A stretch of DNA of 64,000 nt, taken from contig JAJPKP010000061.1 of assembly GCA_021323675.1 (NCBI GenBank), forward strand, positions 11,955-75,954, given 5' to 3'. This document shows positions 33,170 to 64,000 of the stretch, one piece after another. The notes beneath the pieces were generated by a model. It was not told the origin of the DNA. It did no database searches and was given only the letters and a program-made list of their open reading frames with translations. The number at the start of each line of letters is the position of its first letter. Positions within the stretch are counted from its first letter, which is position 1. Source of the DNA: Pseudomonadota bacterium. Its GTDB lineage: Bacteria > Desulfobacterota > Binatia > Binatales > Binataceae. The translations under genes were made by a program, and so were the position numbers.

Positions 33170-33269
33170 CCGCTGCTACCGGGCCTCAGTGCCCTCATTT
33201 GATTGTTGATTGTCGGCGGGCGGGTGGTCTTTCGGCCATCCGCCCGCCCGCGCTAAACAAGATCATACG

Positions 33270-34720
33270 ATGTCGGAACCGCGTTACATCATCATTCACG
33301 GCCATTTCTATCAGCCGCCGCGGGAGAGTCCCTGGACCGGCCTTATCAGTCCGGAACCCGGCGCGGCGCCGTTTCCCAACTGGAACGAGCGCATCCTGAG
33401 CGAGTGCTACACGGCCAATGCCCATGCGCATACGATGGAGGGCACGGTCGTTCACGTCCGCAACAACTACGAAACGATCAACTTCGACCTCGGACCCACG
33501 CTTGCGGTCTGGATGCAGGGGCATGGCAAGGCGGCGTATCGCGCGATGCTGCGTGGCGACGCGCTGTCTCGCGAGCGCCTGAGCGGTCACGGCAACGCGA
33601 TCGCGCAGGCGTACAACCATTCGATTCTGCCACTTCTGTCCGCACGCGACCGCGAACTGCAGATAGCATGGGGCATCGAAGACTTCGTTTTCCGGTTCGA
33701 TCGCCGTCCGATCGGGATGTGGCTGCCCGAGTGCGCTGCAGATGATGACACGCTTGCGGCGGTCGCCGCGGCAGGAATCAAGTTCGTTCTCCTCGGTCCG
33801 GAGCAGGGGCAATATCAGGGTGAGGATTCCGGTACTCGCGCCGCGGGTCCGTTTCTATGGAGCAATGGCGCGGCCGAGGTTGCGGTCTTCCGCTTCGATC
33901 GCGAGATGTCCGGGACGGTTTCGTTTGGCGAAGGACTCGACGATGGCGCCCGGCTTGCCGAATGGATAGCTGCCACCGCGCTGGCGCTGCCCGAAGGGTC
34001 CGCGCTGATGATTGCGACCGACGGAGAAACCTTCGGACATCACAAGAAGAAGGGAGCCGCGGAACTGGCGCGCGCGCTGATCCTGCTGCAGCGTCGTCAC
34101 GACGTAGTTGTCACCAATTGCGAGCAATATCTGGCCGAGCACGGGGCGCGCGGGAAATTCTCCATCAATGGCGCGAGTTCGTGGAGCTGCGCGCATGGCG
34201 TCGAGCGATGGCGATCGGAGTGCGGATGCCGCCTCGAAGCCGGGACGCGCCAGGACTGGCGCCTGCCGCTGCGCGAAGCGATGGAGTTCGTCAACAACCA
34301 CGGCGCGGCGGTGTACGACCGGTTCGCTCCCGGGCTGGTCAAAGACCATCAGGGCGCGCTGCGCCGGGCAATTCGATTGCTGATCGATCCGAATCCCGCC
34401 GTGCACGAGGAATTCTTCATCAAGTTCGGCGTCGCCGGCGAAGTGTCGCGTGAACGGCTGCTGCGTCTGTTCGATATGGCGCGCTGCGGGCAGGCATCGC
34501 TGACTAGCTGTGCATGGTTCTTTGATGATTTTGGCGGGCCGGAGGGACGCGTGGCGCTGCGCTGGGCGGCTCGGGCGGTGGAACTTGCGGCCGAGCTCGC
34601 CCCAAGCATCGAGAGCCAGCTTCTGGAGCGGCTGCGGGAGATCCGGTCGAATCGGCACGAAATCGGCGACGCGGCTACCCTGTACTTGAGCCTAAAAACG
34701 CGCGAAGCGCGCGGGAGGGT

Positions 34721-34724
<4 letters not shown>
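33270..34724 (+). CDS. glycoside hydrolase family 57-like protein (DUF3536)
   Basis: N-terminus '[17 protein letters not shown]', as recalled for GH57/DUF3536 proteins. 4-nt overlap with acs. Start by table offset. Confidence 0.65.
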
Positions 34725-48789: not shown

Positions 48790-49008
48790 ATGGCTCGAAT
48801 CGAAATCGACCTGCCGGACGAGCTCCGCGACGATCTTCGAAAGGTCGCTGACGCGCTGGGCTTCCACCTGCTGTCGGAGGCGGCGTTGATTGCGATAGCC
48901 GACTGGACCGCGCGGCGCAAAGCCGAGCTGGACGATAGGGACCCGAGCCAGAGATACTTCGTGAACGAGGCGTTGGATGAACTCATCGCAAAACAAATCA
49001 AGAAATAA
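48790..49008 (+). CDS. ribbon-helix-helix (CopG/ParD-like) DNA-binding protein, orphan
   Basis: 'MARIEIDLPDELRDDLRKVADALGF' fits an RHH beta-strand plus helix. No toxin partner nearby. Overlaps the next ORF by 32 nt. Confidence 0.4.
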   Translation: MARIEIDLPDELRDDLRKVADALGFHLLSEAALIAIADWTARRKAELDDRDPSQRYFVNEALDELIAKQIKK

Positions 49009-50032
49009 CCTCCTCCTGGGCATCGTTGTCTCCGGCCTAGTACTTGGCGCCGCTGCGATGCTGACCCCGAGTTCCCGGGCGCTTGCGGCCGGCAAATCCA
49101 AAGGCGTCGAGGTCGAGATTCCGTACGAGGCCACCGTCCTCAAGACCTCCCTCACTTCGCCGCTTTATGTGAACGACGCGAGCGGCGGGATGGTTGTATC
49201 GGATGCGGCAGGGGGAGTTTATTCGGTCAGTCTCTCCGGCAAAACCACCGAGTTGGCCGGCAAATCGAAAGTGAAACATCCCGCAGGCGTTGCTAAGGCT
49301 CCTTCAGGGTTCGGAGCCGGCGGGCAGGTCTACGTTCTGGCTTCCGGCGATGACGCCGCGGGGCCGTGCGAGGTGGACGCAATCGACTCGTCAGGCGGTG
49401 TGAGCACGTTTGCCAAGCTTCCGGACGCCGCGGGGGGCAAGCCCACGGATTGCCGGGATCTGCAGTTTGGCGCAGCGGGAACGCCGTATGCCGGCAAGCT
49501 GTATGCCGCGACCGCCGGCAATTCGACGATTTATGCGATCGACTCGTCCGGCAAGGCGGCCGCCTTCGGATCCTTCGACAAGCCTATCGCTTTCGACCTG
49601 ACGACCATCGGCTTTGCGCCGGCCAGCGATCCGAAGGCTCCCAACATGATGCTGGTAGGGATGCGGCCGAAGATGCAGGGCGCGGCGAAAGTCGGGCGCA
49701 TCGGCGTGGTCGGCCCGGACGGCAAGCTCAAGGACGATCCCTATCTGGTCGGATTCATCCGCCCGAGCGGATTCGGCACCTCGCCGGCAAATTGGGGTTC
49801 CTATGGCGATACGTTCTTCATCGCGGATTTTGGCAAGCCCGCATCGGCCGAAGGTGGCACCACGGACGGCTCGCTCTATCGTGTGTACAAGGGCGTTGCG
49901 CGTCCCTTCGCCAGCAACCTGGCGGATCCGACTTCGATGAAGTTCATCGGCGGCAAGATGGTAATTGCCGATCCGGCAATCAAAGGAGCGCCGGGATCGG
50001 GCGGTATCGTCGTAATTTCGTCTCTCCTCTAG
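48977..50032 (+). CDS. hypothetical secreted protein (Gly/Ala-rich, possibly beta-propeller)
   Basis: Signal peptide 'LLLGIVVSGLVLGAAAMLTPSSRALA'. Repeated 'G.YA.DSSG' motifs. Confidence 0.5.
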   Translation: MNSSQNKSRNNLLLGIVVSGLVLGAAAMLTPSSRALAAGKSKGVEVEIPYEATVLKTSLTSPLYVNDASGGMVVSDAAGGVYSVSLSGKTTELAGKSKVKHPAGVAKAPSGFGAGGQVYVLASGDDAAGPCEVDAIDSSGGVSTFAKLPDAAGGKPTDCRDLQFGAAGTPYAGKLYAATAGNSTIYAIDSSGKAAAFGSFDKPIAFDLTTIGFAPASDPKAPNMMLVGMRPKMQGAAKVGRIGVVGPDGKLKDDPYLVGFIRPSGFGTSPANWGSYGDTFFIADFGKPASAEGGTTDGSLYRVYKGVARPFASNLADPTSMKFIGGKMVIADPAIKGAPGSGGIVVISSLL

Positions 50033-50769: not shown

Positions 50770-50919
50770 GTGACAATGCCTCCCCGCGGGGCATAATCGA
50801 TTCTTCAGCGGGAAAGATCAAATTGCCGCCGACGCTTCAGGAACTTCTTTACACGAAGAAAGAAAGAGGGCTGCCGGAGAATTCCGGCAGCCCTCACGAT
50901 CGCGGTATCGAGTTGAACC

Positions 50920-53900
50920 TTACGGAGTAATACAGCCCGTTGGTTCGGCGACCGGCTTGTAGTGCGGGAACTGACCGCCTGCTCCGCCATCCTCGGTCCG
51001 GTTTACGACCGTGCCGCCGCTCGACGCAACCAGGTTGCCATCCAGCGTGGGCGTGGCCGGCGTGCCGTAGGTTACGTAGGGATCGGGGCATTTGGAGGCC
51101 AAGGGTGACCAGGTTGAATCGTTCAGGACGATGCCGTAATCCTGACAGCCTTCCGCCGGGCAAACATAGTAGCTCTCGCCCCCGTTTTTGGATGGGCAGA
51201 AATACGGATCCGTGGAGCTGTCGCCCGTGCAGGCGCCCAAAGGCGACGGGCCGGTGGCATTTGGCCTGACCTGGGCCACGTACAGGAAGAGCCATCCGGT
51301 GCTTGGGTCATAGAAATACTTGTCCAGAACCGGCTTGCCGTTGGAAGTCAGCTCCGAGATCGAATTGGCGGGTGTGAGCGTCGCCTTGTCATATATGCAG
51401 AGCGACCGATTGCTGTCTTTGTGGGAACCGGTCGGGCACGTGCCACTCGTAGGAACAGGGATCACGCCGACCGATGGGCAGTTTTTGTCCTTTTTGTAAT
51501 TCTGACGGTCCAGGTTGAAGCATGCTTCTTTGGAGGTCAGCCCGTTCGCCTGCCCGTCAAGCTGGTTATAGGCTTTCCTCAGCTCCTGATCGGTCGGATC
51601 GACGCCGCCGCCGCCCCATGATCGGTATCCTTGGGTGATGGTGAACAGGCTTGCGGAGTTCGGATGGTTGTTCTGAGTGCTCGATCCGGTTCCGGTGTAG
51701 CAGATACCCACGCGGACGTAGAAAGGACTGTCAGCGGAGATATTTGGTTTTACGGTATCGACGACCGCGACGTGGACAACACTCGCTATTCCCTGGTCTG
51801 CGGTGATTGTATAGCCGTAACCGCTTTGGATTTTAGGCTCCCACACGCCCTGTCCATCGCGGCCCGACAATACCATCTCCGGATGCTCCCGAAGGTTTCC
51901 GCTGAACTCGGTGGAATCCTTCGTGAATGTAACGTGCTGATCGTGACGGTTTTGGTCATTATCCGCATTCGGGTCGGGCGGATTTGGAAACAGTGTCTGG
52001 AATTCCAGGGCTGCCGCCTCTCCGGGGGAGAAATTTGCGTTGGCGCGGCCTTCCATCTTCTTGTCCTGCTTGCCGGTCGCCTGGCACTCGTCAACCGAGC
52101 CGCCCGGTGTGCTGCCGGCCGCGTTCAGTTCGAGGTTGTTGAGAGAAATCGGATGCAGCTTGCCATCGAGGCTGTCGTCGCTGGTGGGTTTGACGGTGTA
52201 CCCGCTCAGGGTTCCGTCCAGGTCGATGATGGCGGTGTTTTTGTCGCCGTCATTGAAGGCGGAAATGTTGACCTGTTGCGTGTAAACCTGGTGGCGAAAA
52301 TCGACATTATCCCACGAGAGCTTTTCGCTGGCTGTTGCTACCGGATAGGAACTGAGGTTTCCCTGGAACCATCCGAGCGCTGCGTCGCCTTCGTACACTC
52401 CGTTGGGAGGCGGAGGAATCGGCGATGGAGGACTGTTCAGGTAAGCCGTGTCGTAGGTGGTCAGCAGGCTCGTTGGGTCGGCTTTAAAGTTGACGAACCG
52501 ATCGTGGAAAATGAGCGCGGGCCCGTCGTAAATCATGTAACCGGCCATGTTCCAGCGATTGTCGGGGTAGCCGTTGTTGATTCGATCGGCGCCGGTGCCC
52601 TGCTGGCCTTTTGCAGCCGCGGTTTTATCAATACAGCCGAAGTTCCATCCGCCAATTTGTCCGAGGCCCTGCGAACTCTGCCGGATCGAGGGGCAGGGGC
52701 CGAAGCGGTCGACGTTGTTCTGGCTGATCCCGACTATCACCGAATCGCTAAGCAGCGAGTAGATTCCGGGGTAGTTGCCGTCGGGTCCGCCGGAGGTTAC
52801 CAGCGAGATTCCGTCGCGATTGGTGGCAATCCGGGCGCCGCTGACGGTATAGAAGCTTGGCCGCAGCCAGATTCCTCGGAAGCGGTTGCGCGTGACCGTA
52901 ACGCCCGTAAATTCGGCCATCGTCGCGTGATTGGTCGGAGACTTCACTCCGTTCTGATAGGGCTGCAGTGCTTCGGCGTTGATATCCTGATTGTCGCCGC
53001 TATAGAGCCCGGAGTCGCAGCCATGCGCCCGGTTGTTGACGAAGGTTCCGTGAGGATTGCCGATTCCGGTGTAGGTGCCTACCGGAATGAACTTTTTGCT
53101 TTGCAGGGTCTGGCTGCCGCGGAACGGCGGGACGTACCAGTATCCCTTGCCCTCGCCCTGGCATCCGCCAATCGAGTTGTTGGTCAGGTTCGTGCTGGGA
53201 TTGACAATCCAGAAACCGCTCGCGGGTTCATAGTAATACTCTCCAGAGTTGCACGGTGGTTGGGTTCCGGTCGGAATGAATGACCCGTTGTCATTGGTGT
53301 TCTTGTCGCCGAACTTCATGCAGCTTCCGACCGTGCCGGCGGTCTGGTCTCCGGTGTCCGGAATCTTGAATTGATCGAACGGCATCTTCTTTGAATCCTG
53401 GTTGAGCGGATCGACCATGTTGTCGCCCACCCACCAGGAATTGCTGATGAGGGTGTTACGCGCGGTCTCCGGCGTGCCACCGTCGTTCACGTCGAACCAG
53501 TTGCTCATCGCGCCCAGGCCGAGATTGTGATTGAACGTGACGTTGTCCTCGTCGCCAATCTCCTCGTAGAAGATGTGCCCGGTGATTCTCGCGCAGACGT
53601 TGTTCGAGATGGTCAGGTTCTGCGTCGAATGGATCGCTATGCACTTGTTATAGCTGTGATGGATGCTGTTGGAATCGAGGAGCGGCTTCTGCGCCACGTC
53701 TTGATCCATATGGAAATGGATCGGATAGCTGCCGAGCTTGTCCTTGCCGAACTTCGAGATCTCGACGCCCTGGATGGAAACTTCGTTGAAGCCCTGGAGA
53801 AACTTGATCTCGCCGCCCCAATGGTTGCTCGTTCCGGTGGCGGGAGTGACGGAGGTCAGCGTGATATTGCGGGTGATGAGGCCGACCTCGGCGCGCTCGT

Positions 53901-54927
53901 CAACGCCGTAGTTGCGATCGGAGCCGTCCGTCATGCCTCCGGTCGGCGGAAGCGATCCGAAGTGATAGAACTTGAGCGGCGTCGAGGGGGAGAGGTTGAT
54001 GATCCGGTTTCCGTTTTTGTCGAGAGCGCCAAAACCCGCGATCTGAACGAATTCCGATTCAAACGGACTGAAACCGGTGCCGCCCACCACGATCCAATCG
54101 TTGGCCTGCCACGCGCCGGGCTTCTTGGTGACATCGTCCTTCACCACGATTTGCGTGGCTGACTTGGCGGGAACCGCCACCTTGTGTGTTGCGTCGTATT
54201 TCGAAGGGCCGGCCGCGTCACCGAGGTAGGTCCAGCTCACGCCCGTGGGTGGAACGCCCTTGAGCCCGTACATCCTCAGCGATCCGCCCTTTTCGACCTG
54301 GATTCCCTTGGTGTAGCCGGGGCAATCGTTGTTGACGCAGTTGGGACTTTTATCGCCGGTGAACTTGATAGTGACGTTGGTCGCGGGGTTGATGGTGCCA
54401 ATCGGACACTTGGCGTTGCCGACTTCGAGGCTTCCGAATACGTCGATGCCGGTAGTCGTCAGCGTGACTGGAAGCTGCGCTGTGCGATCGAGAAATTTTA
54501 CCGTGGCTCCGGCGTTGATCGTGATCTTGCCGTAGCTGGCGTTGGCGGTGTCAACGTAAACCGTGACGTTCCCTTTGCACTCCGGTTGGGTTTTTGAATC
54601 GCTGCCGCCGACGACGACATCCTTGGTCTTCGTATCGACCATGCATTTGGACAATATGCCGTAGTTTCTCTGAACTTCGCATTCAGGAGTCGCGGTAGCC
54701 TGGGGCGCCGGTGGCGTCGCCTGAGGCGGGTTTGTCGCGTGATTTTTCTTGTGATGTCGGCGCGCGGCGGCCGGCGAGGCCAGCATCGCGACAACCAGTA
54801 CAACCGCGATCGGAACCGCCGATTTTGCAATCGCCAGCGGCTTGATGACCTTGCTGCGCGCTGTGAAAACAGCGGCAATCCGGGCCCAATTCCGGGAAAT
54901 CATCGTCGAGAATGAATTCATACTCAT
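50920..54927 (-). CDS. giant secreted G8-domain / parallel beta-helix protein, CEMIP/TMEM2-like
   Basis: Signal anchor, then Pro-rich linker. About 800 aa with block-wise similarity to animal CEMIP ('RAEVGLITRNITL', 'GGEIKFLQGF', 'YPIHFHM', 'SIHHSYNKC', 'NHNLGLG', 'VNNRAHG'). Cys-rich ~450-aa C-terminal region. Start ambiguous (54966, 54927 or 54903). Confidence 0.7.
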   Translation of the reverse strand: MSMNSFSTMISRNWARIAAVFTARSKVIKPLAIAKSAVPIAVVLVVAMLASPAAARRHHKKNHATNPPQATPPAPQATATPECEVQRNYGILSKCMVDTKTKDVVVGGSDSKTQPECKGNVTVYVDTANASYGKITINAGATVKFLDRTAQLPVTLTTTGIDVFGSLEVGNAKCPIGTINPATNVTIKFTGDKSPNCVNNDCPGYTKGIQVEKGGSLRMYGLKGVPPTGVSWTYLGDAAGPSKYDATHKVAVPAKSATQIVVKDDVTKKPGAWQANDWIVVGGTGFSPFESEFVQIAGFGALDKNGNRIINLSPSTPLKFYHFGSLPPTGGMTDGSDRNYGVDERAEVGLITRNITLTSVTPATGTSNHWGGEIKFLQGFNEVSIQGVEISKFGKDKLGSYPIHFHMDQDVAQKPLLDSNSIHHSYNKCIAIHSTQNLTISNNVCARITGHIFYEEIGDEDNVTFNHNLGLGAMSNWFDVNDGGTPETARNTLISNSWWVGDNMVDPLNQDSKKMPFDQFKIPDTGDQTAGTVGSCMKFGDKNTNDNGSFIPTGTQPPCNSGEYYYEPASGFWIVNPSTNLTNNSIGGCQGEGKGYWYVPPFRGSQTLQSKKFIPVGTYTGIGNPHGTFVNNRAHGCDSGLYSGDNQDINAEALQPYQNGVKSPTNHATMAEFTGVTVTRNRFRGIWLRPSFYTVSGARIATNRDGISLVTSGGPDGNYPGIYSLLSDSVIVGISQNNVDRFGPCPSIRQSSQGLGQIGGWNFGCIDKTAAAKGQQGTGADRINNGYPDNRWNMAGYMIYDGPALIFHDRFVNFKADPTSLLTTYDTAYLNSPPSPIPPPPNGVYEGDAALGWFQGNLSSYPVATASEKLSWDNVDFRHQVYTQQVNISAFNDGDKNTAIIDLDGTLSGYTVKPTSDDSLDGKLHPISLNNLELNAAGSTPGGSVDECQATGKQDKKMEGRANANFSPGEAAALEFQTLFPNPPDPNADNDQNRHDQHVTFTKDSTEFSGNLREHPEMVLSGRDGQGVWEPKIQSGYGYTITADQGIASVVHVAVVDTVKPNISADSPFYVRVGICYTGTGSSTQNNHPNSASLFTITQGYRSWGGGGVDPTDQELRKAYNQLDGQANGLTSKEACFNLDRQNYKKDKNCPSVGVIPVPTSGTCPTGSHKDSNRSLCIYDKATLTPANSISELTSNGKPVLDKYFYDPSTGWLFLYVAQVRPNATGPSPLGACTGDSSTDPYFCPSKNGGESYYVCPAEGCQDYGIVLNDSTWSPLASKCPDPYVTYGTPATPTLDGNLVASSGGTVVNRTEDGGAGGQFPHYKPVAEPTGCITP

Positions 54928-55008
54928 CGAACTCCTGCGCGGCTGTCCGCGCCCGATATCACACACGCCGGAACTGAGCGGATGGATTTTAGACGCGGTT
55001 TGGCCACC

Positions 55009-56499
55009 TTATCTTCGAATCTTCGCGGCCGCCTTTGCGCTTCCGGCTTTGCTGCCCGCCGTAAACTGCGGGGGCAGGCTCGTCGCCGCTCCACCGCTGA
55101 CCGTCGGCAACGGGAAGAACTTCACGCCGTGCCCGTTATCGCAACTGGACGTCGTCGCAAGGCTGGCGCAACTGCCGGCCGGCAGCGCGGTCGCGATCGT
55201 CTGCGGGTTCTTCTGCAGCTTCGCCAGATTGATCTGAACGACGAACGTCCGAAAGTCGTCGATCACGTATCCAAGGTTGTGGCAGGTGTCGATGTCCGTG
55301 CCGTAGGGAAACTCGGCAGCCTGGAACGGAAGCCCGAGAGGATCCGACGGTATCGAACTGTGCACGCTTTTTACTTGCGAATCTTTCAGTTGTTTGACCT
55401 TGCCGGTCGGGAGACTCAGGAGCGCGATCTCGTTGGAAGAGTCCGCGGTGATGAGCGCCTTGTGGGTGAGCGGATTCACCCCGACGCCCGGCATCCCGAT
55501 CGAGCCAACCTGGGTGTCGTGGTTTACGGAATTGGGTTGCGTTCCACCTTCGTCCAGCGAGCAGGCGTCGGTGCCCAATCCGTTGAACGTCGACCGGTTT
55601 AGATTGATCACGCTCACCTGCGGGGACTCGAAATTGCCCACCACCCAGATATCGGTCGTGGGATCGACGCCGACACCGTCTGGGTCAGCATCAAGGTTGA
55701 CGACATTTTGATCGACCAGGAGACAAAGAGTCGGCGGGTCGCCCAGATGAGGAACGAGCAGCAGAAACGCGGCCAAATCCGACGTCGAGATGGTCAAGTC
55801 GGTCTTCGGTAACAGGCCGAATGCGTTCACATCGACCGACGTTATGAGCAACGGACCGAAGGTCCCGGTGCCGAGATCGAACAATGCCTCGCCGGTGCAT
55901 CCGGCTGAGTTGCTGCAATCGGGTGCATCGTTCATCGAAATAAGGGCGGTGTTGTTGTCAGGATTGACCACGACGCCCGAAGTCGGCCCGGGTCTGCTGC
56001 CGGTCGGAAACGAAACCTGGGAAATCGAAAGGTCGGCTTCGTTGATCAGGAGCAGCGTTCCTGTCGTGACTGCGTTGTCCGCGAGGACCAGAACCGTGCC
56101 GCTTTTGATGTCAACGGCGGCGGCGCGGGGCAGGGCGACCAGGCCAATATCGATGACCGTAACCAACGGATCGCCCTTGTCTGGGTCAACGCTCAAATCG
56201 AGCACCGCGACCTGCCCGTGGAGATTCTCGTTGAGGAAGTCGAGTGGCACGTATGCGCGCTGGCGCTTGCAATCGATCGCGATGACGCTGGAATTGGTCG
56301 CTGGGACCGCCGATACTGCCGGCGCGCCTCCTCCTCCGCTGCTGCCGTTGCATCCGGCCCACATCAGAGCCAGGACGACCAGACAAAGGGCGCCCAGCGC
56401 CCGGGAGGTGATATTAGGCTCGCCAATCGTGCGTTTGATCCCGCTTGTTGCCATAGGAACCATTCCCGCCCTTCCTGAAACTCGAAGCGTTTGACTCAA
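55009..56499 (-). CDS. lipoprotein with beta-propeller-like repeats
   Basis: Lipobox 'LALMWAGC'. Repeated 'V.V.D...G' strands. 42-nt gap to the G8 gene on the same strand. Probable start at 'MATSG' (56454). Confidence 0.55.
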   Translation of the reverse strand: MSQTLRVSGRAGMVPMATSGIKRTIGEPNITSRALGALCLVVLALMWAGCNGSSGGGGAPAVSAVPATNSSVIAIDCKRQRAYVPLDFLNENLHGQVAVLDLSVDPDKGDPLVTVIDIGLVALPRAAAVDIKSGTVLVLADNAVTTGTLLLINEADLSISQVSFPTGSRPGPTSGVVVNPDNNTALISMNDAPDCSNSAGCTGEALFDLGTGTFGPLLITSVDVNAFGLLPKTDLTISTSDLAAFLLLVPHLGDPPTLCLLVDQNVVNLDADPDGVGVDPTTDIWVVGNFESPQVSVINLNRSTFNGLGTDACSLDEGGTQPNSVNHDTQVGSIGMPGVGVNPLTHKALITADSSNEIALLSLPTGKVKQLKDSQVKSVHSSIPSDPLGLPFQAAEFPYGTDIDTCHNLGYVIDDFRTFVVQINLAKLQKNPQTIATALPAGSCASLATTSSCDNGHGVKFFPLPTVSGGAATSLPPQFTAGSKAGSAKAAAKIRR

Positions 56500-56799
56500 G
56501 TAGAAGAAACCTTCCTGCGATGGAAATAGGTTTTCGATGAATTTATGTTCGAATTCGCGCGCAAATCAGGAAAATCAAAGTTGCGTAACGCAGCGTTAAA
56601 GCGTGATTTCGCCATTAACGCCCAGAATTGATGCCTCTTGCCGAACGGCGTTCTACGCTAGTCAATTCAAGCCCAAACTACAAGGAGGTCGCCTACGAGC
56701 AATGCGGCGATTGTAGTGGAGGCTTAGAGGCGCGTGGAAGCCAACGTCCATTTGAAAAATCTAAAAGATTAGTAAAATTTGTGTCAGGCCGGAGACCAG

Positions 56800-59703
56800 A
56801 TGGATAACCAGCTTCATTTCCCGCCGTTTCGCTTGGATCGGCGTGGAGGCAAACTCTGGCGGGGTGACCGCTCGATTGCTCTCAGACCAAAGACGTTCGC
56901 TCTCCTTGATTATCTCCTTGCACACGCTGGCAAGCTCCTAAGCAAGAACGAACTTCTGACGGCATTGTGGCCGGACGTGAATGTCCACGACGCGGCCCTG
57001 ACGGTGTGTATCCACGAGCTTCGCGACGCGCTGGGCGACGATGCGCAAGCCTGTCGCTTTATAGAAACCACCCACGGACGCGGCTATCGATTCATCGCGC
57101 AGGTAACTGCGACGGATCCCGCTTCCGTTCAGGGCGAGGACGATGTCTTCGTGGGGCGGCAGGAAGAGCTTGCCGCGCTTTCCCAAACCTGGAGGCGCGT
57201 CCTGAAGGGAGCCACGCGGGTGGTGTTTGTGTGCGGCGAGGCGGGAATCGGCAAAACCACCCTGGTCCAGAGGTTTCTTGCTGCCGCCGAACGGCCAACA
57301 GCGTCCTGGACAGGCCGCGGACAATGCGTCGAGTTGTATGGAGAAAGCGAGTCCTACCTGCCGATCCTCGAGGCGCTTGGGCAGATGTGCCGCGGGAGAA
57401 GCGGCGCCGAGGTCAGGCGTGTTCTCCTCAAATATGCGCCGAGCTGGGCGCTTGAGATTCCCGGACTGGTGGCGGCCGCCGACCTGCCGGCGGTTCGGCT
57501 CGATTCAGCTTCCGCGCCGCTGTCGCGCAGGCTTCGGGAGTTCGCCGAAGCGATTGAACTGCTGGCGGCAGTGCGTCCGGTGATACTGGTCTTCGAGGAC
57601 CTTCACCTGAGCGATCGCGCCACGCTGGAACTCATATCCTACCAGGCAAGACAAGGCGGCGAAGCGCGCGTGCTCATCATCGGCACCGCTCGTCTGCAGG
57701 AGGAGCGCACGCGGCCGGTGAACGACATGATTCGCGATCTCAACAGCCGCCATCAATGCGAGCTTCTCGAGCTCGACGCTCTTGGTCAGGGCGCGGTGGC
57801 CGATTACCTTCGCCGCCGAATCGGAAACGAGTCGGTATCGCTGGATCTTGCCACCCAGGTCTTCAGCCGCACCGAAGGCAATCCGTTGTTCATGGTGACA
57901 ATCTCCGACCGGCTGCTGGAGTTCGATGACGGCAGCCGCCAGGTCGGTGCTGACGACCTCGAGCGCATCGGGGTGCCTGACAGCCTGCGCGACATGATCG
58001 AAAAACAGTTCGACATGCTGGCGGACAACGACCGCCGGCTGATCGAAGCCGCGAGCGTTGCCGGGGTCGAGTTTCCGGCGGCAAATCTCCGGGCGGCACT
58101 TGGCCAGAGAAGGGACGGTGCGATCGAGCCATGGGAGGATCGCTGTGATGACCTGGTCCGGCGCGGCCGGTTTCTCCGGCGCAGGGGAATCACGCAGTGG
58201 CCGGACGGAACCTTGTCGGCGCGATATTCGTTCGTTCACGGGCTGTACCAGGAAGTTGTCTATAACCGCGTCAATCCCGCCCGCCGCGCCCGCTACCACC
58301 TGCGGATCGGCGAACGGATGGAGGCGGCATACGGCACCCGGGCGGGCGATGTGGCGGCCGAGTTGGCTGCTCACTTCGAGAAGGCGGGCGATAACCAACG
58401 CGCGGTCAAATACTTTGGCGCATCGGTTGAAACCGAGCTTGGGCGTTCCGCATACGATGCCGCGATCGCGCAGGCCAGAAAGGCGCTGTCACTTGCCGGT
58501 GCGCTGCCGGCGGGGCCGCAGCGCAGCGGCGAGGAATTGCGGCTGCGGATGCTTCTGGGATCCGCCCTGATGGCGCGACTCGGCATCGCGGCGCCATCCG
58601 TCAAGCAGGCATACGCCCGCGCCGAAGAGCTGGTTGAGAGGATGGATGATACTCCGGCCCTCGTTCCGGTTCTGTTAGGCTCGGCCAAGTTCCACATCGT
58701 CCGAGGCGAACTCGATGCCGCGCAGAAGTTCGCGGAGCGAGCGCTGAGAATGGCTCATCACGCGCAAGATCCTGACCTTCTTCTGGAAGCACGGCTGGTT
58801 ATCGGCGCGATACTCTATAGCCGCGGAGAATTTCGCGATTCGCTGAGGCACTTCGAGCAGGCTGAATCTCTCTACGATCCCGCCAGACATCGTCTCCACG
58901 CTCTAACCTACGGAATTGAGCCCGGCGTGCTCGGCAAGAACTATGTCGCGATGAACCTGTGGCGGCTGGGATTTGCCGACCGAGCGCGCAAACATGCCAC
59001 CGAGGCGGTCGCGCTTGCCGAGGAATCGGGACATGCCCACAGCATCTCGTTGGCGCTCACCGGTTTGGCCTCGATTTACGAACGCTGCCGCGATTGGTTG
59101 TCGGCGGCGGCCTGGGCCGAGAAGCTGGTCAACTACGCGGCGGAAAAAGAGCTGGAGTTGTGGCGCGCGTGGGGAGAGGTGCTCTTGGGTACCGCGCAAG
59201 CCGAACTCGGCGATTCTCGCCAGGGATCGATGAGGATTCGATCGGGCCTCGACTCGCTCGAAGCAACCGGAGGCAGCGCACGACAGGCCGAAGTCGCCGC
59301 GCTCGAGACGCTGGTTCGCGCGCATGCGCTGGCGGAGCAGGAGGCGCTCCACATTGCAACCAAGGCGCTTGCGACCGCCCGCAAAACGGGCGAACTGACC
59401 GACGAGGCGGAGATGCAGCGAATTATCGGCAGCTTCCGGCTCGCCGGAGGCGGCGCTGGAAACGAGGCGGGGCACGCAGAGGGAGAACAGAGCCTGCTTG
59501 AAGCGATCGAAACGGCGGATCGGCAGAACGCGCTGGCCTACAAGCTTCGGGCGGAGATCGTTCTGGCGCGCCGGCGTATGCAGCGTGGAGACCGCGAGAG
59601 TGTGCGCACGCGTCTGATCGAGTCCTACCGGAGGTTTACCGAAGGCTTCGATACCGCCGACCTGAAAGAGGCAAAAACGCTAATCGAAGAATTGCAAGCC
59701 TGA
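56800..59703 (+). CDS. winged-helix (OmpR/PhoB-type) + P-loop NTPase + TPR/helical (STAND-like) transcriptional regulator
   Basis: N-terminal trans_reg_C 'LRPKTFALLDYLLAHAGKLLSKNELLTALW...GRGYRF'. Walker A 'GEAGIGKTT'. About 600 aa of helical repeat. Confidence 0.7.
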   Translation: MDNQLHFPPFRLDRRGGKLWRGDRSIALRPKTFALLDYLLAHAGKLLSKNELLTALWPDVNVHDAALTVCIHELRDALGDDAQACRFIETTHGRGYRFIAQVTATDPASVQGEDDVFVGRQEELAALSQTWRRVLKGATRVVFVCGEAGIGKTTLVQRFLAAAERPTASWTGRGQCVELYGESESYLPILEALGQMCRGRSGAEVRRVLLKYAPSWALEIPGLVAAADLPAVRLDSASAPLSRRLREFAEAIELLAAVRPVILVFEDLHLSDRATLELISYQARQGGEARVLIIGTARLQEERTRPVNDMIRDLNSRHQCELLELDALGQGAVADYLRRRIGNESVSLDLATQVFSRTEGNPLFMVTISDRLLEFDDGSRQVGADDLERIGVPDSLRDMIEKQFDMLADNDRRLIEAASVAGVEFPAANLRAALGQRRDGAIEPWEDRCDDLVRRGRFLRRRGITQWPDGTLSARYSFVHGLYQEVVYNRVNPARRARYHLRIGERMEAAYGTRAGDVAAELAAHFEKAGDNQRAVKYFGASVETELGRSAYDAAIAQARKALSLAGALPAGPQRSGEELRLRMLLGSALMARLGIAAPSVKQAYARAEELVERMDDTPALVPVLLGSAKFHIVRGELDAAQKFAERALRMAHHAQDPDLLLEARLVIGAILYSRGEFRDSLRHFEQAESLYDPARHRLHALTYGIEPGVLGKNYVAMNLWRLGFADRARKHATEAVALAEESGHAHSISLALTGLASIYERCRDWLSAAAWAEKLVNYAAEKELELWRAWGEVLLGTAQAELGDSRQGSMRIRSGLDSLEATGGSARQAEVAALETLVRAHALAEQEALHIATKALATARKTGELTDEAEMQRIIGSFRLAGGGAGNEAGHAEGEQSLLEAIETADRQNALAYKLRAEIVLARRRMQRGDRESVRTRLIESYRRFTEGFDTADLKEAKTLIEELQA

Positions 59704-59715
59704 TCGTCCCGGCGA

Positions 59716-60417
59716 TCAACGCCATGGTTGGCGGATACTTTCCGTGTCGCCGGTTTCCCGGTTGACAAGTACCATTTCGATTTCGCGGTATTCGCCCTTT
59801 GGGAAAAATACATAGCCGCTCACGGTGAAGTTGCGGTGAACTTCCTCCGGCCGCAGGGCCAATCCGGCGATCTGTTCGCTGGCCTGCTGGTCGGCCTTGC
59901 TTTGTCCGCGTGATGCGCCGCTAAGCATGCCGCTGCCGGCGCCGATCACCGAGCCTAATACCGCGCCGGTCCCCGCTCCGCCCAAAGCAGCTCCGCCGAT
60001 AGCACCCAAGCCCGCGCCAACCGCTCCAGCCGCGAGTCCGCTTACCGCGGCACTGCCGAGAGCGGCTTTGAGTTCTCCCGCCCCGCCTGCTTGTCTGGCC
60101 GCCTCTTCGGGAGCCAGCGGCGCCACTCGTTCCCCCGCATCGTTGATAGCAAAAATCTGGCTGGGCACGACCGCGTACGGTTCGTTCGTACCGTTGGCAA
60201 TCGATACGTAAACCGGTTGGATATCGCCGACAGGCGAACCTGCCTGCAAGGAGGTTGTAAGATGGCCAGTTTGCGGAGTCGCAACCACCTGCGGAGGATG
60301 CTTGATCGGAGGCGAAGCAACTGCGCATCCCCAAACCGCGACCATAAGCGATATGGCCACAACACCTCTAACAAAAGACCGCAAATGCCAACTATGGGAC
60401 CGTGTTGATGCTTTCAT
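59716..60417 (-). CDS. glycine-zipper lipoprotein (hypothetical)
   Basis: Lipobox 'VAVWGCA'. Central 'GLAAGAVGAGLGAIGGAALGGAGTGAVLGSVIGAGSG' Gly-zipper. Convergent with the regulator (12-bp gap). Confidence 0.5.
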   Translation of the reverse strand: MKASTRSHSWHLRSFVRGVVAISLMVAVWGCAVASPPIKHPPQVVATPQTGHLTTSLQAGSPVGDIQPVYVSIANGTNEPYAVVPSQIFAINDAGERVAPLAPEEAARQAGGAGELKAALGSAAVSGLAAGAVGAGLGAIGGAALGGAGTGAVLGSVIGAGSGMLSGASRGQSKADQQASEQIAGLALRPEEVHRNFTVSGYVFFPKGEYREIEMVLVNRETGDTESIRQPWR

Positions 60418-60439
60418 CATCGTCTCGGAACGAACCAAC

Positions 60440-61220: not shown

Positions 61221-61664
61221 CTACTCGCCCGTCCGAAACTCCGGTATCGGCTCCCAGAGCGACTGTGTCGTTCGCATCCCGGGTGTCGGCGTTGGCGTCG
61301 AAGTCGGCAGGGTGTCTTCCTCGTCAGAAGTCTCTGTAGCTTCAATTCTCTTTATTACGTAGGCGTTGTCCTCGTTGCTCAGACATCCACAGTCGGGTGT
61401 CGTGGTGACACTGTCAAGACTGTAGTCATTTGGAACGGGTTGATTGGCGCAAATGATCATGACCGAGCCACGAACCGGCTCGATTTTGCGTGCTCTGCAC
61501 GATCCGTGGCAAATCGGACTGGTTCCGGTGGCGGTAACAACCATGTTGCCGGGGATGACATCTTCGGAACAGACGACTTGCGCCTGGCGCGACGCGGCCG
61601 AGACAGTTCCAGCCATCGTGACGCTTGTGAGCAGCAGCAGAAGGGCCGCGTAGGTAGTTTTCAT
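61221..61664 (-). CDS. small Cys-rich secreted protein (hypothetical)
   Basis: Signal peptide 'MKTTYAALLLLLTSVTMAGTVSAAS'. Six Cys. Acidic Thr/Pro-rich C-terminus 'TPTPTPG'. AT-richer codon usage than neighbours. Confidence 0.5.
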   Translation of the reverse strand: MKTTYAALLLLLTSVTMAGTVSAASRQAQVVCSEDVIPGNMVVTATGTSPICHGSCRARKIEPVRGSVMIICANQPVPNDYSLDSVTTTPDCGCLSNEDNAYVIKRIEATETSDEEDTLPTSTPTPTPGMRTTQSLWEPIPEFRTGE

Positions 61665-61774
61665 AATACTCTGTGTGATGCCTTCGGTGTTCAAAAGCCG
61701 GACTATGTCCGCCGTGTGGCGGAGAGCGCATGAGTGCGCAAGTGACGTAGTTCGATAGCGTCGCGCTTACTATC

Positions 61775-64000
61775 GTGTCAAGCATTCTTCGGTTCGGATC
61801 GTTCGGAGCAGCGTTGTTGGCGCTGCTCGCGATGCTGGCGACGACGGTGCGGATTGCGTCGGCCCAAAGCTACGCCACGCCGTCCGTCAATCCTGAGGAC
61901 TTCGTGGTCGGACCTGGAGAGGATCAGCCGGGATCGCCGGATGAGGCGTCCGGCTCTGATCAAAATTCATCGGGAGACCAGGCGGGATTAGGACAAGCCG
62001 GCGGGTCGATGATGCAGGATTTGAACATCTCGCCCGATCAGCTCGAGCGGCTGAAAGGCGAGTATCAGGGCGGCAATCTGTCTGAAGACCAGTTTCAGGA
62101 GTTATGCGCGAGGGTGGCCGCCAAGCACCTGAGCGATCAGGACGTGCAGGCGCTGGCGACGTCGATGGGGTTTGCGGCGGATCAGGCGGATAAGCTGCGA
62201 CAATGCGCTGAGGAAGCGCGAGGGGGAGCGCGAGGCGGACGGCAGGGGCCAAGCGCACAGAACCGCGATCAAATCGCGCGGCAGTTCGAACTCGAACGAC
62301 GCCGCCAGAAGCTGAAAACGTCACCGATAGAAGAGGAGTTTCGGAGTCTGGCGAGTCCGTATCGCCAGCCCGAAGCTCCGACTTCGGAGCATCTGGAGCA
62401 GTTTGGTTATTCGGTCTTTTCGGAGCCGGTCTCGACTTTTGCACCGGCTACCAACGTGCCTGTCAGCGAGGATTACATTCTCGGCCCCGGCGACAACTTG
62501 ACGGTGCTGCTTTGGGGACGCGTGAACCGGACTCTCAAATTGCCGGTGCAGCGTGACGGCTCGGTCCTGATGCCCAATCTCGGACCGATTCCAGTCGCGG
62601 GATTGACCTTCGAGCAGGCCAAGAAGCTCATCGAGTCGCGCACCGGACAGATCGAGGGCGTGCAGGTGAACGTCACGATGGGCGCAATTCGGACGATCCA
62701 GGTGTTCGTGATGGGCAAGGTGAATCAGCCCGGCCTCTACACGATCAGCGCGCTCTCGCACATAACCAACGCGCTGGTGGCGGCGGGCGGAATCGCCAAA
62801 GTCGGCACGCTTCGCAACGTGGAACTGCGCCGGGGCAACCGCACGGTTGCGGTGATCGATCTCTATAACATCCTGCTGCACGGCGATTCGTCCGGCGATG
62901 TCCGGCTCGAACCGCGCGACGTGATCTTCGTGCCGGTAATCGGGCCGGTCGTGGGTATCACGGGCGACGTGAACAGCCCCGGCATCTACGAACTCAAGGG
63001 CGAAGCCAATCTTCGCAGTGTGCTCGCCCTGGCCGGAGGCGTCAGCGCTTTCGGTTACGCCCAGCGGGTCCAGGTCGAGCGAATCGACAACCATCAACGG
63101 CGCATCGCGCTCGATGTGGAGCTTGGTGACCTTGGGCGTCCGCGGTTTCCAATCCACGACGGAGATCTCGTGAAAGTGTTTCCCGTTTTGCCTTTGCAGC
63201 AGAACGTGGTGGTACTCAAAGGGAACGTCAATCGGCCGGGAACCTACCAATGGCGCCAGGGAATGCGAGTGTCCGACCTGATCCGGGAAGGCGAGGGCAT
63301 TTCGGACCATACATATTTGGATTACGCGACCATTCGGCGGCGGGTTGCGCCTACCCAGCGAATCGAGTATCTGCCCGTGGACCTGGGCGCCGCACTGCAA
63401 AGCACTTCTCCCACCTTCGATGTGGCGCTTGCCCCACGTGATGAACTCACGGTGTACAGCGACAACGACTTGAACGATGTTCCGACGGTTACGGTGCGGG
63501 GGGCGGTGCGCAAGCCCGGGACCTATCCTCTATCGCAAGGAATGAAGCTGAGCGACCTTATCTACGAGGCGGGCGGGCTCAAAGACGATGCTTATCAGAG
63601 ACGCGGCACTTTGGCCCGCACCGAGATCGTCAACGGCGCGACCACGCGGCACTCTTATATCGACGTGGATATTGCCGCCGCGCTTGTCCCCGGCAGCACA
63701 AACGATCCCGAATTAAACCGCTATGACGAGCTCTTCGTTCAGGAGGCGTCCAACTGGCACAAGCCCTGGGAAGTGAGAGTTCACGGCCAGGTGCAGCGCC
63801 CCGGCCCCTACGTCATCCGGGAAGGGGAACGCCTGTCCGAGGTTCTTAGCGACTGCGGGGGCCTTCGCGCTGACGCCTATCTGCCCGCGATCGTGTTCGA
63901 ACGCGAATCGGTCCGAGCGATGCAGCGCGAGAGGCTGGCGGAGAGCCGTAAACGGTTGAAGGAGGATCTCCTGATGGTGTCGTTGATGCCTCAGCCGTTG
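61775..64000 (+). CDS. polysaccharide export protein (Wza/KpsD-like, Poly_export + multiple SLBB domains), 3'-partial
   Basis: Not in ORF track because it has no stop in the window. GTG 61775 gives signal peptide 'SSILRFGSFGAALLALLAMLATTVRIASAQS'. 'YILGPGDNLTVLLWGR' Poly_export motif. At least three SLBB-like repeats ('VFVMGKVNQPG', 'VTGDVNSPG', 'VLKGNVNRPG', 'VRGAVRKPG', 'VHGQVQRPG'). Open to window end, frame checked by hand. Confidence 0.8.
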   Translation, partial: MSSILRFGSFGAALLALLAMLATTVRIASAQSYATPSVNPEDFVVGPGEDQPGSPDEASGSDQNSSGDQAGLGQAGGSMMQDLNISPDQLERLKGEYQGGNLSEDQFQELCARVAAKHLSDQDVQALATSMGFAADQADKLRQCAEEARGGARGGRQGPSAQNRDQIARQFELERRRQKLKTSPIEEEFRSLASPYRQPEAPTSEHLEQFGYSVFSEPVSTFAPATNVPVSEDYILGPGDNLTVLLWGRVNRTLKLPVQRDGSVLMPNLGPIPVAGLTFEQAKKLIESRTGQIEGVQVNVTMGAIRTIQVFVMGKVNQPGLYTISALSHITNALVAAGGIAKVGTLRNVELRRGNRTVAVIDLYNILLHGDSSGDVRLEPRDVIFVPVIGPVVGITGDVNSPGIYELKGEANLRSVLALAGGVSAFGYAQRVQVERIDNHQRRIALDVELGDLGRPRFPIHDGDLVKVFPVLPLQQNVVVLKGNVNRPGTYQWRQGMRVSDLIREGEGISDHTYLDYATIRRRVAPTQRIEYLPVDLGAALQSTSPTFDVALAPRDELTVYSDNDLNDVPTVTVRGAVRKPGTYPLSQGMKLSDLIYEAGGLKDDAYQRRGTLARTEIVNGATTRHSYIDVDIAAALVPGSTNDPELNRYDELFVQEASNWHKPWEVRVHGQVQRPGPYVIREGERLSEVLSDCGGLRADAYLPAIVFERESVRAMQRERLAESRKRLKEDLLMVSLMPQPL

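Follow-up and report, generated by a model that had tools for sequence, protein, structure and literature searches.

Animal CEMIP and TMEM2 are linked to the depolymerisation of hyaluronan, and the question raised by this locus is whether a soil bacterium of the Binataceae encodes a true relative of these proteins and, if so, what such a relative might do. The stretch of DNA analysed (64,000 nucleotides, here called the window) contains a maximal open reading frame of 1348 codons on the minus strand (50920-54966) that begins at a GTG (54966). The sequence-only reading that drew attention to it gave the frame correctly, without its strand, as a 1348-residue gene, but the translation start is likely to be an ATG rather than the GTG: either M14 (54927), which has AGGAG 4 nt on its 5' side, or M16 (54921), the start used in the 1333-residue database entry, for a product of 1333-1335 residues. 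The coding sequence of this G8/CEMIP-type beta-helix protein is thus best placed at 50920-54927 (minus strand; stop codon 50920-50922). The database copy (P0001, 1333 residues), which is 100% identical to the window protein, occurs in NCBI MAG assemblies. An intrinsic-terminator-like hairpin (50866-50895, minus strand; 13 bp, 10 GC, T-rich tail) lies 25 nt past the stop codon.

The window protein shows true homology to the G8 and beta-helix proteins CEMIP and TMEM2, with a similarity far above chance. The Pfam profiles CEMIP_beta-hel (PF24606, E = 3.7e-40) and G8 (PF10162, E = 4.2e-11, residues 133-248) match it far below a limit of E = 1e-3, and a Pfam search found both in all 33 family members. 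The G8-like domain proposed near the N-terminus is therefore present, and the matches are not generic PbH1 repeats, the outcome that would have spoken against the relationship. The TMEM2 ectodomain (8c6i) matches the window protein directly (phmmer E = 4.2e-26) and the family profile in five colinear segments (E = 2e-59), with the two G8 segments aligned by profile at an i-E of 1e-4. An AF2 model of the protein (pLDDT 91.2, pTM 0.92) matches the TMEM2 ectodomain in Foldseek (E = 4e-42, TM 0.58/0.55), and a separate structural comparison aligns 805 residues, more than the helix alone. The CEMIP-type beta-helix blocks YP(I/V)HFH, SIHHS and GHxF(F/Y)xE are kept. All seven bacterial sequence blocks on which the comparison was originally based are found in the translation; among the CEMIP blocks paired with them, 'GGHIKFALGF', 'VGQYPIHFHLAGDV', 'SIHHTFSRCVTVHG' and 'FDHCLGLL' occur exactly in animal fragments (P0178/P0181), whereas 'DMRAEVGLLSRN..' and 'FW.ANPNNNL.NC' are off by 1-3 residues. 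Homology to CEMIP/TMEM2, with the architecture described below, is virtually certain. It is already on record in Pfam and in NCBI annotation, where bacterial members are labelled "G8 domain-containing protein", so that the analysis is new but the discovery is not.

The protein is, as had been proposed, very probably exported, to judge from its hydrophobic N-terminus, the 26 cysteines of its mature part, and the equivalent or classic signal peptides of its homologues. The putative export signal (residues 16-68; 54763-54921, minus strand) consists of a positive n-region and a hydrophobic segment of 19 residues, AVPIAVVLVVAMLASPAAA (residues 50-68), and may serve as a signal peptide or as a signal anchor. 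It is followed by the basic stretch RRHHKKNH and a Pro/Thr/Ala-rich linker (residues 69-95; 54682-54762, minus strand); both the hydrophobic segment and the Pro-rich linker had been noticed earlier. Comparable basic stretches are present in the nearest relatives (P0007, P0009, P0024 and P0045).

The remainder of the protein is a single continuous right-handed beta-helix, a domain-X-like sandwich and a Cys-rich tail. The first helix turns (residues 96-345; 53932-54681, minus strand), delimited by Pfam, the TMEM2 profile alignment and AF2 strands, include the 'G8 domain' (residues 133-248; 54223-54570), which also forms part of the beta-helix according to the TMEM2 paper. The CEMIP-type parallel beta-helix core (residues 346-825; 52492-53931, minus strand) is interrupted by a 96-residue insertion (residues 486-581; 53224-53511, minus strand) with conserved W512, G514, D515, C549, C572, Y578 and E580, at the position taken in TMEM2 by a groove-covering loop of 37 residues (627-662). 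The domain-X-like beta-sandwich with insertions (residues 861-1232; 51271-52386, minus strand), recognized from weak colinear TMEM2 segments, the structure alignment and the AF2 model, is about 140 residues longer than the corresponding region of TMEM2. It contains the motifs DGDKNTAIIDLDGTLSGY (906-923) and YFYDPSTGWLFLYV (1216-1229), with the TMEM2-colinear patterns DGDKN..D.DG..GY and FYD.STG.LFLY; CEMIP_X (PF24605) matches weakly in four of the 33 family members (best E 1e-3). The Cys-rich extension of ~450 residues formerly thought to have no counterpart thus appears to be largely domain-X-like. Only its last ~115 residues, the Cys-rich module (residues 1233-1348; 50923-51270, minus strand; conserved cysteines 1246, 1257, 1269, 1274, 1293 and 1345), have none, and they stand where TMEM2 has its second lectin-like domain.

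The lectin-like domains GG-1 and GG-2 of TMEM2 (CEMIP2) and CEMIP (KIAA1199/HYBID), on which the hyaluronan activity of the animal proteins depends, are both absent. In TMEM2, GG-1 and a small beta-sandwich are inserted after the third helix turn, and residues of GG-1 are needed for hyaluronan degradation (R187 of CEMIP; R265, D273, D286 and H248/A303 of TMEM2). The window protein has only 24 profile positions (37 residues) between G8 and helix core, compared with about 172 in TMEM2, and no ILEI/PANDER-type Pfam match was found in the 33 family members at E <= 0.1. In place of GG-2, for which there is no Pfam match, the stretch beyond the FYDxSTGxLFLY strand is Cys-rich and only about 117 residues long, compared with about 250 in TMEM2. 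The protein, which is rich in disulfides, very probably exported and about 140 kDa in size, is therefore a pared-down bacterial member of the CEMIP/TMEM2 superfamily and not the equivalent of its animal relatives, from which it also differs in its bacterial host, its propeller-lipoprotein partner and its lack of a link to hyaluronan. Hyaluronan is an unlikely substrate in soil Binataceae. That the protein is a bona fide bacterial hyaluronidase, functionally equal to CEMIP/TMEM2, has the homology in its favour, but is extremely improbable given the missing GG-1 domain with its hyaluronan-degradation residues, the soil and groundwater habit of the carriers (Binataceae, Bryobacteraceae, Methylomirabilota and Variovorax), which have no obvious access to hyaluronan, and the absence of such enzymes from reviews of microbial hyaluronidases. 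The enzymology of the animal proteins is itself unproven, because neither the ectodomain of human TMEM2 in purified form nor soluble CEMIP shows detectable hyaluronidase activity in vitro. Mouse TMEM2, and CEMIP when cell-associated, do drive the depolymerisation of hyaluronan, but the active site has not been assigned and the status of these proteins as enzymes is disputed.

A conserved polar signature lies on successive helix rungs (residues 356-473; 53548-53901, minus strand): D356, R358, R366, N367, E402, Y414, P415, H417, H419, H436, H437, K441, C442, H446, G463, H464, E469, G471 and E473, in the pattern Y-P-x-H-x-H, H-H, (K/R)-C-x3-H, G-H, E-x-G-x-E. The window family, a second group of bacterial proteins and the animal CEMIP/TMEM2 proteins all share these residues without variation; among 132 representatives no more than 50% identical to one another, conservation of the residues is mostly 90-99%, falling to 80% for H437 and to 66% for N367, where Ser is the main alternative. 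Judging from strand register, H417, H419, H446 and E469 point outward from successive PB1 strands, the usual active-site face according to the TMEM2 paper. The signature is a candidate active or ligand site of the superfamily, proposed from conservation and register, and some of its histidines may be structural.

The family is rare, with 158 loci among 185,579 species. Other bacterial proteins with PF10162 and PF24606 (for instance in Candidatus Binatus, Bryobacteraceae, Methylomirabilota, Variovorax and Xenophilus) are full-length orthologues or paralogues of the same architecture, with 36-73% identity and no substantive difference from the window protein other than the lipoprotein partner of its nearest sublineage. 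A separate group from Pseudomonadota (one member from Caulobacteraceae), marked by YPIHWH and GHCFFLEDGIE, stands nearer to the animal proteins (46-50% core identity, versus 38-39%). Beta-helix polysaccharide lyases, hydrolases and epimerases are far more distant: the Klebsiella K1 capsule lyase (7w1c/9k4a), GH87 alpha-1,3-glucanase, AlgE4/AlgG, PL6/PL31 alginate lyases, GH28 polygalacturonases and GH110 enzymes have at most 14% identity, and none gave a significant sequence match (best E = 2.4). GH28 enzymes carry the catalytic motifs NTD, (G/Q)DD, G(H/S)G and RIK on consecutive PB1 strands. These motifs are absent from the window protein, in which Asn-Lys (animals: Ser-Arg) stands in place of the catalytic Asp pair, and no acidic pair of a Ca2+ site was identified; the residues with which beta-helix CAZymes classically catalyse are missing. 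On present evidence the protein therefore falls outside those CAZy families.

The only recurring neighbour, overlooked in the sequence-only reading, is the gene immediately upstream (55009-56463, minus strand), which encodes a lipoprotein of 484 residues and ends 81 nt before the M14 start (87 nt before M16). The lipoprotein has a lipobox (..WAGC; LAGC in relatives) and a predicted seven-bladed beta-propeller fold of the YVTN/YncE type, but only 13-19% identity to YncE of E. coli (3vgz) and the YVTN propeller of an archaeal S-layer protein (1l0q), from which it also differs in being lipid-anchored and about 100 residues longer. It has no match in Pfam or other families, and its own family is small (50 database clusters) and for the most part occurs only beside G8 genes. 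It is syntenic with the G8 gene at three inspected loci (L004, L005 and L007) and at 11 of 80 GTDB loci, mostly in Binataceae-type MAGs, while every other neighbour differs; it is thus the conserved partner in the nearest sublineage. The intergenic gap of 81-87 nt without a terminator, and the strong terminator after the G8 gene, make it probable that the two genes form an operon. A sigma-70-like match upstream of the lipoprotein gene (56758-56787, minus strand) is weak, at 9 of 12 positions and with counts no higher than in shuffled sequence. The divergently transcribed gene for a large regulator with an OmpR-type winged helix, an AAA_16 ATPase and TPR (56800-59703, plus strand) is not conserved across 80 related loci, which yielded just three distant matches; the regulator possibly controls the operon in this genome only.

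The polysaccharide-export gene described as adjoining is more distant than that: the 5' part of a Wza-like gene (Poly_export and SLBB; 61832-64000, plus strand, running off the window) begins ~6.8 kb away from the G8 start, past four open reading frames, and heads a Wza-SLT-Wzi-GNVR-epimerase cluster whose transcription leads away from the G8 operon. This neighbourhood is peculiar to the present genome. The G8 gene is not demonstrably tied to this capsule-export locus. It is quite unlikely that the protein processes the cell's own polysaccharide, like the trimmers of the AlgL/PslG/RbmB type, together with this Wza-Wzi-GNVR capsule/EPS locus and under the intervening regulator: Wza, Wzi, SLT and GNVR homologues occur within 6 kb in none of the 80 related loci, six inspected contexts have nothing glycan-related in common, the gene is outside the export operon with four open reading frames between, and genomes hold one or two paralogues at unrelated places. 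The same counts do not indicate the new surface-glycan processing system that had been suggested, and no other glycan gene recurs beside the G8 gene in the loci compared.

The family most likely acts on glycans. We would give roughly even chances to the full explanation that the protein is a glycan-active beta-helix enzyme with a lipoprotein partner, most probably a polysaccharide depolymerase with endo action; that it cleaves glycans is at or just short of an even prospect. Such a depolymerase, a hydrolase or lyase, would bind its polymer lengthwise in the groove of the PB1 face, with the 96-residue insertion forming part of the cleft, and would cleave it by means of His417/His419/His436-437/His446/His464, Glu469/Glu473 and Lys/Arg441, while the lipoprotein may tether or aid the enzyme in the cell envelope in this lineage. 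In line with the sequence-only reading, the searchable literature yielded no characterised member from bacteria. Alternatively, the protein may be a non-catalytic envelope component, a rigid scaffold for binding glycans or proteins (adhesin, S-layer-like or matrix-organising) that is anchored with the help of the lipoprotein and in which the role of the His/Glu patch is not catalysis but binding or structure, possibly metal binding. This has some, though a minor, chance of being correct. It is in keeping with the inactivity of the purified TMEM2 ectodomain and the lack of an assignable active site, with the presence of the adhesins PfbA and Vag8, and of NosD, among the structural neighbours at similar Z, with an archaeal S-layer protein among the best matches of the propeller, and with the absence of the standard catalytic acids and of a metabolic gene context (no carbohydrate-uptake or catabolism genes accompany the gene in about 90 loci). 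However, most structural neighbours are enzymes, the activity of mouse TMEM2 and cell-associated CEMIP speaks for catalysis, and the retention of ~15 polar residues at 90-99% for more than 1 billion years, from bacteria to vertebrates, is more typical of catalysis than of lineage-specific adhesion. Alginate C5-epimerases and lyases of the AlgG-AlgE type carry a YG(F/I)DPH(D/E) or DPHD catalytic motif, and it is improbable that the protein is a polysaccharide-modifying or metal-dependent enzyme rather than a depolymerase, be it a uronate C5-epimerase/lyase-like enzyme of that type with a Tyr/His constellation or an enzyme with an unconventional His-cluster metal centre.

CEMIP and TMEM2 govern hyaluronan turnover in cancer, inflammation, hearing and ageing, and the bacterial relative keeps just the beta-helix and a domain-X-like sandwich, with an almost invariant signature that it shares with the human proteins. 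This stripped-down architecture and retained signature reduce the candidates for the functional site to about 15 residues. The protein defines a rare family of very large, exported proteins with a beta-helix, which occurs in soil Binataceae, Acidobacteriota, Methylomirabilota and Burkholderiales and may be a new CAZy family if it is enzymatic. The window protein might become a simple model of the CEMIP/TMEM2 family, and cultivable bacteria (Variovorax and Xenophilus) offer family proteins for biochemistry and genetics. A further proposal, which is rather unlikely, is that the His/Glu/Arg signature is the catalytic centre of the whole CEMIP/TMEM2 family, with a chemistry unlike that of the Asp/Glu hydrolases and Ca2+-lyases among beta-helix enzymes and an activity that needs a partner, the beta-propeller lipoprotein here and cell-surface factors in animals. 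The need for a partner would account for the apparent inactivity of purified CEMIP and human TMEM2, and, if this is true, the two genes of the bacterial cassette would offer the CEMIP/TMEM2 family its first system open to reconstitution.

The 1348-codon open reading frame on the minus strand at 50920-54966 of the window encodes a bacterial homologue of the animal proteins CEMIP and TMEM2. Its product matches the Pfam models CEMIP_beta-hel (E=3.7e-40) and G8 (E=4.2e-11); the generic Beta_helix model reaches only 3e-5, under its threshold, and a scan of NCBIfam returned no family. With the single sequence as query, the sole significant PDB sequence match was the human TMEM2 ectodomain (8c6i, E=4.2e-26), and a profile of 33 family members aligned with 8c6i in five colinear segments that start in the G8 region and extend almost to the C-terminus (E=2e-59). 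A confident AlphaFold2 model of residues 96-1295, made with 79 homologues as input (pLDDT 91.2, pTM 0.92), was matched to TMEM2 by Foldseek with E=4e-42 and TM-scores of 0.58/0.55, all other structures scoring 0.17 or less (query-normalised). By every test applied, the similarity to CEMIP/TMEM2 is beyond chance. The homology had been proposed in a sequence-only reading, from blocks of residues set against the CEMIP sequence: every block quoted from the bacterial protein is found in the translation, and the animal sequence quoted is essentially correct when compared with real vertebrate CEMIP/TMEM2 fragments. Because the Pfam, PDB, profile, AlphaFold2 and Foldseek results all agree, the proposal holds: the G8/CEMIP match is present, and the likeness goes beyond generic PbH1 repeats.

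Protein residues are numbered here from a GTG codon, and residues of the model equal protein residues minus 95. An AGGAG motif lies 4 nt on the 5' side of the ATG codon for Met14 (54927), and the 100% identical public gene call in NCBI MAG assemblies (P0001) begins at Met16, giving 1333 amino acids. The G+C content of the gene (58-59%) is slightly under that of most of the window (61-64%), and a strong hairpin with a T-tract is located on its 3' side. Open reading frames antisense to G8 genes, such as window 51631-53283 (plus strand, 550 aa) and L033:5653-9960 in Xenophilus (minus strand, 1435 aa), are artefacts of high G+C content and not genes; their clustering from one locus to another reflects nothing more than the conserved sense frame opposite.

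The protein begins with a charged n-region and a 19-residue hydrophobic segment, recognized in the sequence at residues 16-68. Since the signal peptides of its homologues are classic or long, export of the protein is very likely. Residues 69-95 (window 54682-54762, minus strand) comprise a basic stretch of His, Arg and Lys followed by a Pro/Thr/Ala linker. The basic stretch, RRHHKKNH in the window protein, has counterparts between the hydrophobic segment and the Pro-rich linker in four relatives (P0007, P0009, P0024 and P0045; HHHAHRHRPHR, RRAHHGARHHHRGR, RHRNKKKKH); so strongly basic a stretch following a Sec signal is unusual. The first turns of the beta-helix, including the Pfam G8 match, occupy residues 96-345, and the CEMIP-type helix core occupies residues 346-825, broken by a 96-residue insertion (486-581) at the position of the 37-residue loop that covers the groove of TMEM2. 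Residues 826-860 form a pair of short helices and a stretch of poly-Pro, a beta-sandwich follows (861-1232), and the Cys-rich tail that ends the protein (1233-1348) largely lacks regular secondary structure. There are 26 Cys residues in the mature part.

Two motifs of the beta-sandwich, DGDKN..D.DG..GY and FYD.STG.LFLY, are colinear with domain X of TMEM2. An earlier description of the C-terminal region as a 450-residue extension with no counterpart must be revised, as the structural alignment extends past the helix and the region is largely domain-X-like. The Pfam CEMIP_X model remains below threshold (E=0.13 for the window protein itself; four of 33 members reach E<=0.1, the best 1e-3). In TMEM2, a beta-sandwich of small size and one lectin-like domain (GG-1) are inserted after the third turn of the helix, and a second lectin-like domain (GG-2) comes after domain X. 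Mutation of GG-1 residues abolishes hyaluronan degradation, and GG-1 also sets species differences in activity. Whereas 172 residues separate G8 from the helix core in TMEM2, only 37 residues (24 profile positions) do so in the window protein, which also has about 117 residues beyond the last domain-X motif compared with about 250 in TMEM2, and none of the 33 members scanned matched any GG/ILEI-type Pfam family. The window protein is thus a minimal version, consisting of the helix and a domain-X-like sandwich with insertions and a tail of its own.

Within the helix core, a 132-residue alignment that sets the window family beside fragments of animal CEMIP/TMEM2 and a second group from bacteria contains ten residues that are invariant across all three groups (R358, N367, E402, Y414, P415, H417, H419, H446, G463 and E469) and six that are nearly so (D356, R366, C442, H464, G471 and E473). 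Among 132 representatives sharing no more than 50% pairwise identity, these positions are 91-99% conserved, except N367 (66%, with Ser the chief alternative); H436 and H437 are conserved in 90% and 80%, respectively, and at position 441 every sequence has Lys, Arg or His. The PB1 sheet, on which other beta-helix enzymes build their active-site groove, passes in the model through four consecutive rungs in register (GEIKF, IHFHM, IAIHS and HIFYE), and from this register H417, H419, H446, Y467 and E469 are predicted to face outward on the groove-forming sheet. A profile of the signature region was compared with the PDB at E<=10 for matches to AlgE, AlgG and polysaccharide lyases, and only TMEM2 and one insignificant GH28 match were returned.

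Full-length homologues with 36-73% identity, annotated as "G8 domain-containing protein" where named, are found in Candidatus Binatus and other Binataceae, MAGs labelled "uncultured delta proteobacterium", Bryobacteraceae, Solibacteraceae, Acidobacteriaceae, Methylomirabilota, Burkholderiales (Variovorax, Xenophilus, Ramlibacter and Rubrivivax), Methylobacter and others. Cultivable carriers include Variovorax ginsengisoli CGMCC 1.12090, V. jilinensis J22P168 and Xenophilus sp. L33. A pattern scan of 185,579 species, each represented by one genome, confirmed 158 loci, with two copies in several genomes. Among cultured Burkholderiales isolates, Xenophilus sp. L33 (L033 and L037) and Variovorax (L035, L042) carry the family. 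The two copies in such genomes are divergent paralogues at unrelated positions, and further pairs are L017/L075, L044/L074, L025/L066, L069/L079 and L054/L060. Queried with the helix core (residues 330-830), an exhaustive phmmer search over 1.84 billion cluster representatives returned 98 sequences when E<=1e-30 was required, 1290 for E<=1e-10 and 2788 for E<=1e-3; a small subfamily sits within a superfamily of moderate size.

Because a search with a TMEM2 fragment gave only short fragments, phylogeny was confined to a neighbour-joining tree of the 132-residue core, which contains these fragments rather than full-length animal proteins and carries no support values. In this tree the window family forms a separate clade, and among bacteria it is not the one nearest to the animal proteins, which join two environmental sequences and then the second bacterial group, composed of Pseudomonadota and environmental sequences (P0187-P0204; for example P0189 from a Caulobacteraceae MAG, and P0191). 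This group shares the motifs YPIHWH, IHDT.NRCVTVHGT and GHCFFLEDGIE, and over the helix core is 46-50% identical to the CEMIP/TMEM2 proteins of animals, compared with 38-39% for the window protein; two environmental sequences (P0182 and P0184) reach 50-55%. The tree, within the limits of short fragments and lacking support values, shows nothing to indicate recent exchange with animals.

A gene on the same strand at 55009-56463 encodes a 484-aa lipoprotein with a predicted YVTN/YncE-type fold, a seven-bladed beta-propeller, and ends 81 nt before the Met14 start codon of the G8 gene (87 nt before Met16). No Pfam model matches the lipoprotein reading frame (55009-56499), no terminator was found between the two genes, and they are probably co-transcribed as an operon. 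Lipoprotein homologues with 50-65% identity precede G8 genes on three other contigs, where the remaining neighbours are unrelated. The lipoprotein family numbers only 50 database clusters, at least 12 of them on the same contig as a listed G8 homologue. The partner adjoins the G8 gene in 11 of 80 GTDB loci (nine upstream and two downstream), among them the three loci most closely related to the window gene; the two-gene cassette is therefore typical of the sublineage of the window gene and not of the family. Clustering of flanking reading frames at the 80 loci identified no other genuine conserved neighbour: the remaining clusters were antisense artefacts or ubiquitous paralogous genes in inconsistent positions (SDR, luciferase-like, CoA-transferase and Zn-ADH).

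Divergent from the lipoprotein-G8 operon, across an intergenic region of about 300 bp, is a gene for a large protein with an OmpR-type winged helix, an AAA_16 ATPase domain and TPR repeats (56800-59703, plus strand), possibly a local regulator, which is absent as a conserved neighbour at other loci. It is followed by two small minus-strand reading frames with N-terminal hydrophobic segments (59716-60438 and 61221-61694), called as genes of 209 and 147 aa in public assemblies and without Pfam matches. Beyond them, a Wza-like gene with Poly_export and SLBB domains starts on the plus strand at approximately 61.8-62.0 kb (about 61832) and runs past the window end at 64000; it is succeeded (L010:1-8337) by genes for an SLT lytic transglycosylase, Wzi, a GNVR chain-length protein and two sugar epimerases/dehydratases. 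The polysaccharide-export gene had been placed next to the G8 gene; this genome does have a capsule/EPS locus in the vicinity, but one that does not adjoin the G8 gene, being separated by the regulator and the two small reading frames, and transcription of the whole Wza-SLT-Wzi-GNVR cluster leads away from the G8 operon. Homologues of Wza, SLT, Wzi or GNVR lie within 6 kb in none of the 80 related loci, the neighbours in six inspected contexts are unrelated housekeeping or catabolic genes, and nothing glycan-related is found beside the G8 gene in cultured Variovorax and Xenophilus or in a Methylobacter MAG. The association with the export locus is non-recurrent.

On the other side of the G8 gene, a plus-strand reading frame (48977-50032) encodes a Gly/Ala-rich protein of 351 aa with an N-terminal signal-like segment and no Pfam match, and is kept in sibling assemblies (L001-L003). 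A GH57 and DUF3536 protein encoded among acyl-CoA synthetase genes (33210-34724, plus strand) is probably an alpha-glucan-related enzyme, unrelated to the G8 finding. The remaining genes are housekeeping (nusA-infB-rbfA-truB, RNase II, pdxH, cytochrome oxidase and acyl-CoA synthetases).

The window protein is a disulfide-rich, very probably exported homologue of TMEM2, with a beta-helix, a domain-X-like sandwich and a deeply conserved polar patch. Its structural neighbours are nearly all polysaccharide lyases, hydrolases or epimerases, and because of these neighbours and a conservation whose wide span points to catalysis, the chance that it is a glycan-cleaving enzyme is judged to be close to even. 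The polar patch would line the groove of PB1, in which a polysaccharide chain may be bound and either cleaved or processed in some other way; the larger insertion (486-581) may form part of the cleft, and the lipoprotein may tether or assist the enzyme in the envelope. Epimerase-like or metal-dependent chemistry in place of cleavage is considered quite improbable. The main rival to a glycan-cleaving enzyme, a scaffold or binding protein that catalyses nothing, is unlikely but would agree with three observations: purified TMEM2 is inactive, known catalytic residues are absent and the gene has no metabolic context around it.

Processing of the host's own extracellular polysaccharide, as suggested by the sequence-only reading, was prompted by the export locus, and is improbable in that the neighbourhood on which it rests is not conserved. 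True hyaluronidase activity is very improbable because GG-1 is missing and the hosts inhabit soil and groundwater. A glycan-cleaving enzyme remains the favoured interpretation.

The homology itself is already captured in Pfam models and NCBI names, and an identical protein is present in public assemblies; this is therefore no discovery of a new kind. No characterised bacterial G8/CEMIP homologues, and no experimental work on bacterial members, were found in the literature searched, and they go unmentioned in reviews of microbial hyaluronidases. The minimal architecture (without GG domains, and with a new tail and a larger insertion), the lipoprotein partner and the explicit superfamily signature all appear to be undescribed so far. 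Their value is that the disputed active site of CEMIP/TMEM2, both where it is and whether there is one, becomes testable in a simple bacterial protein with cultivable carriers.
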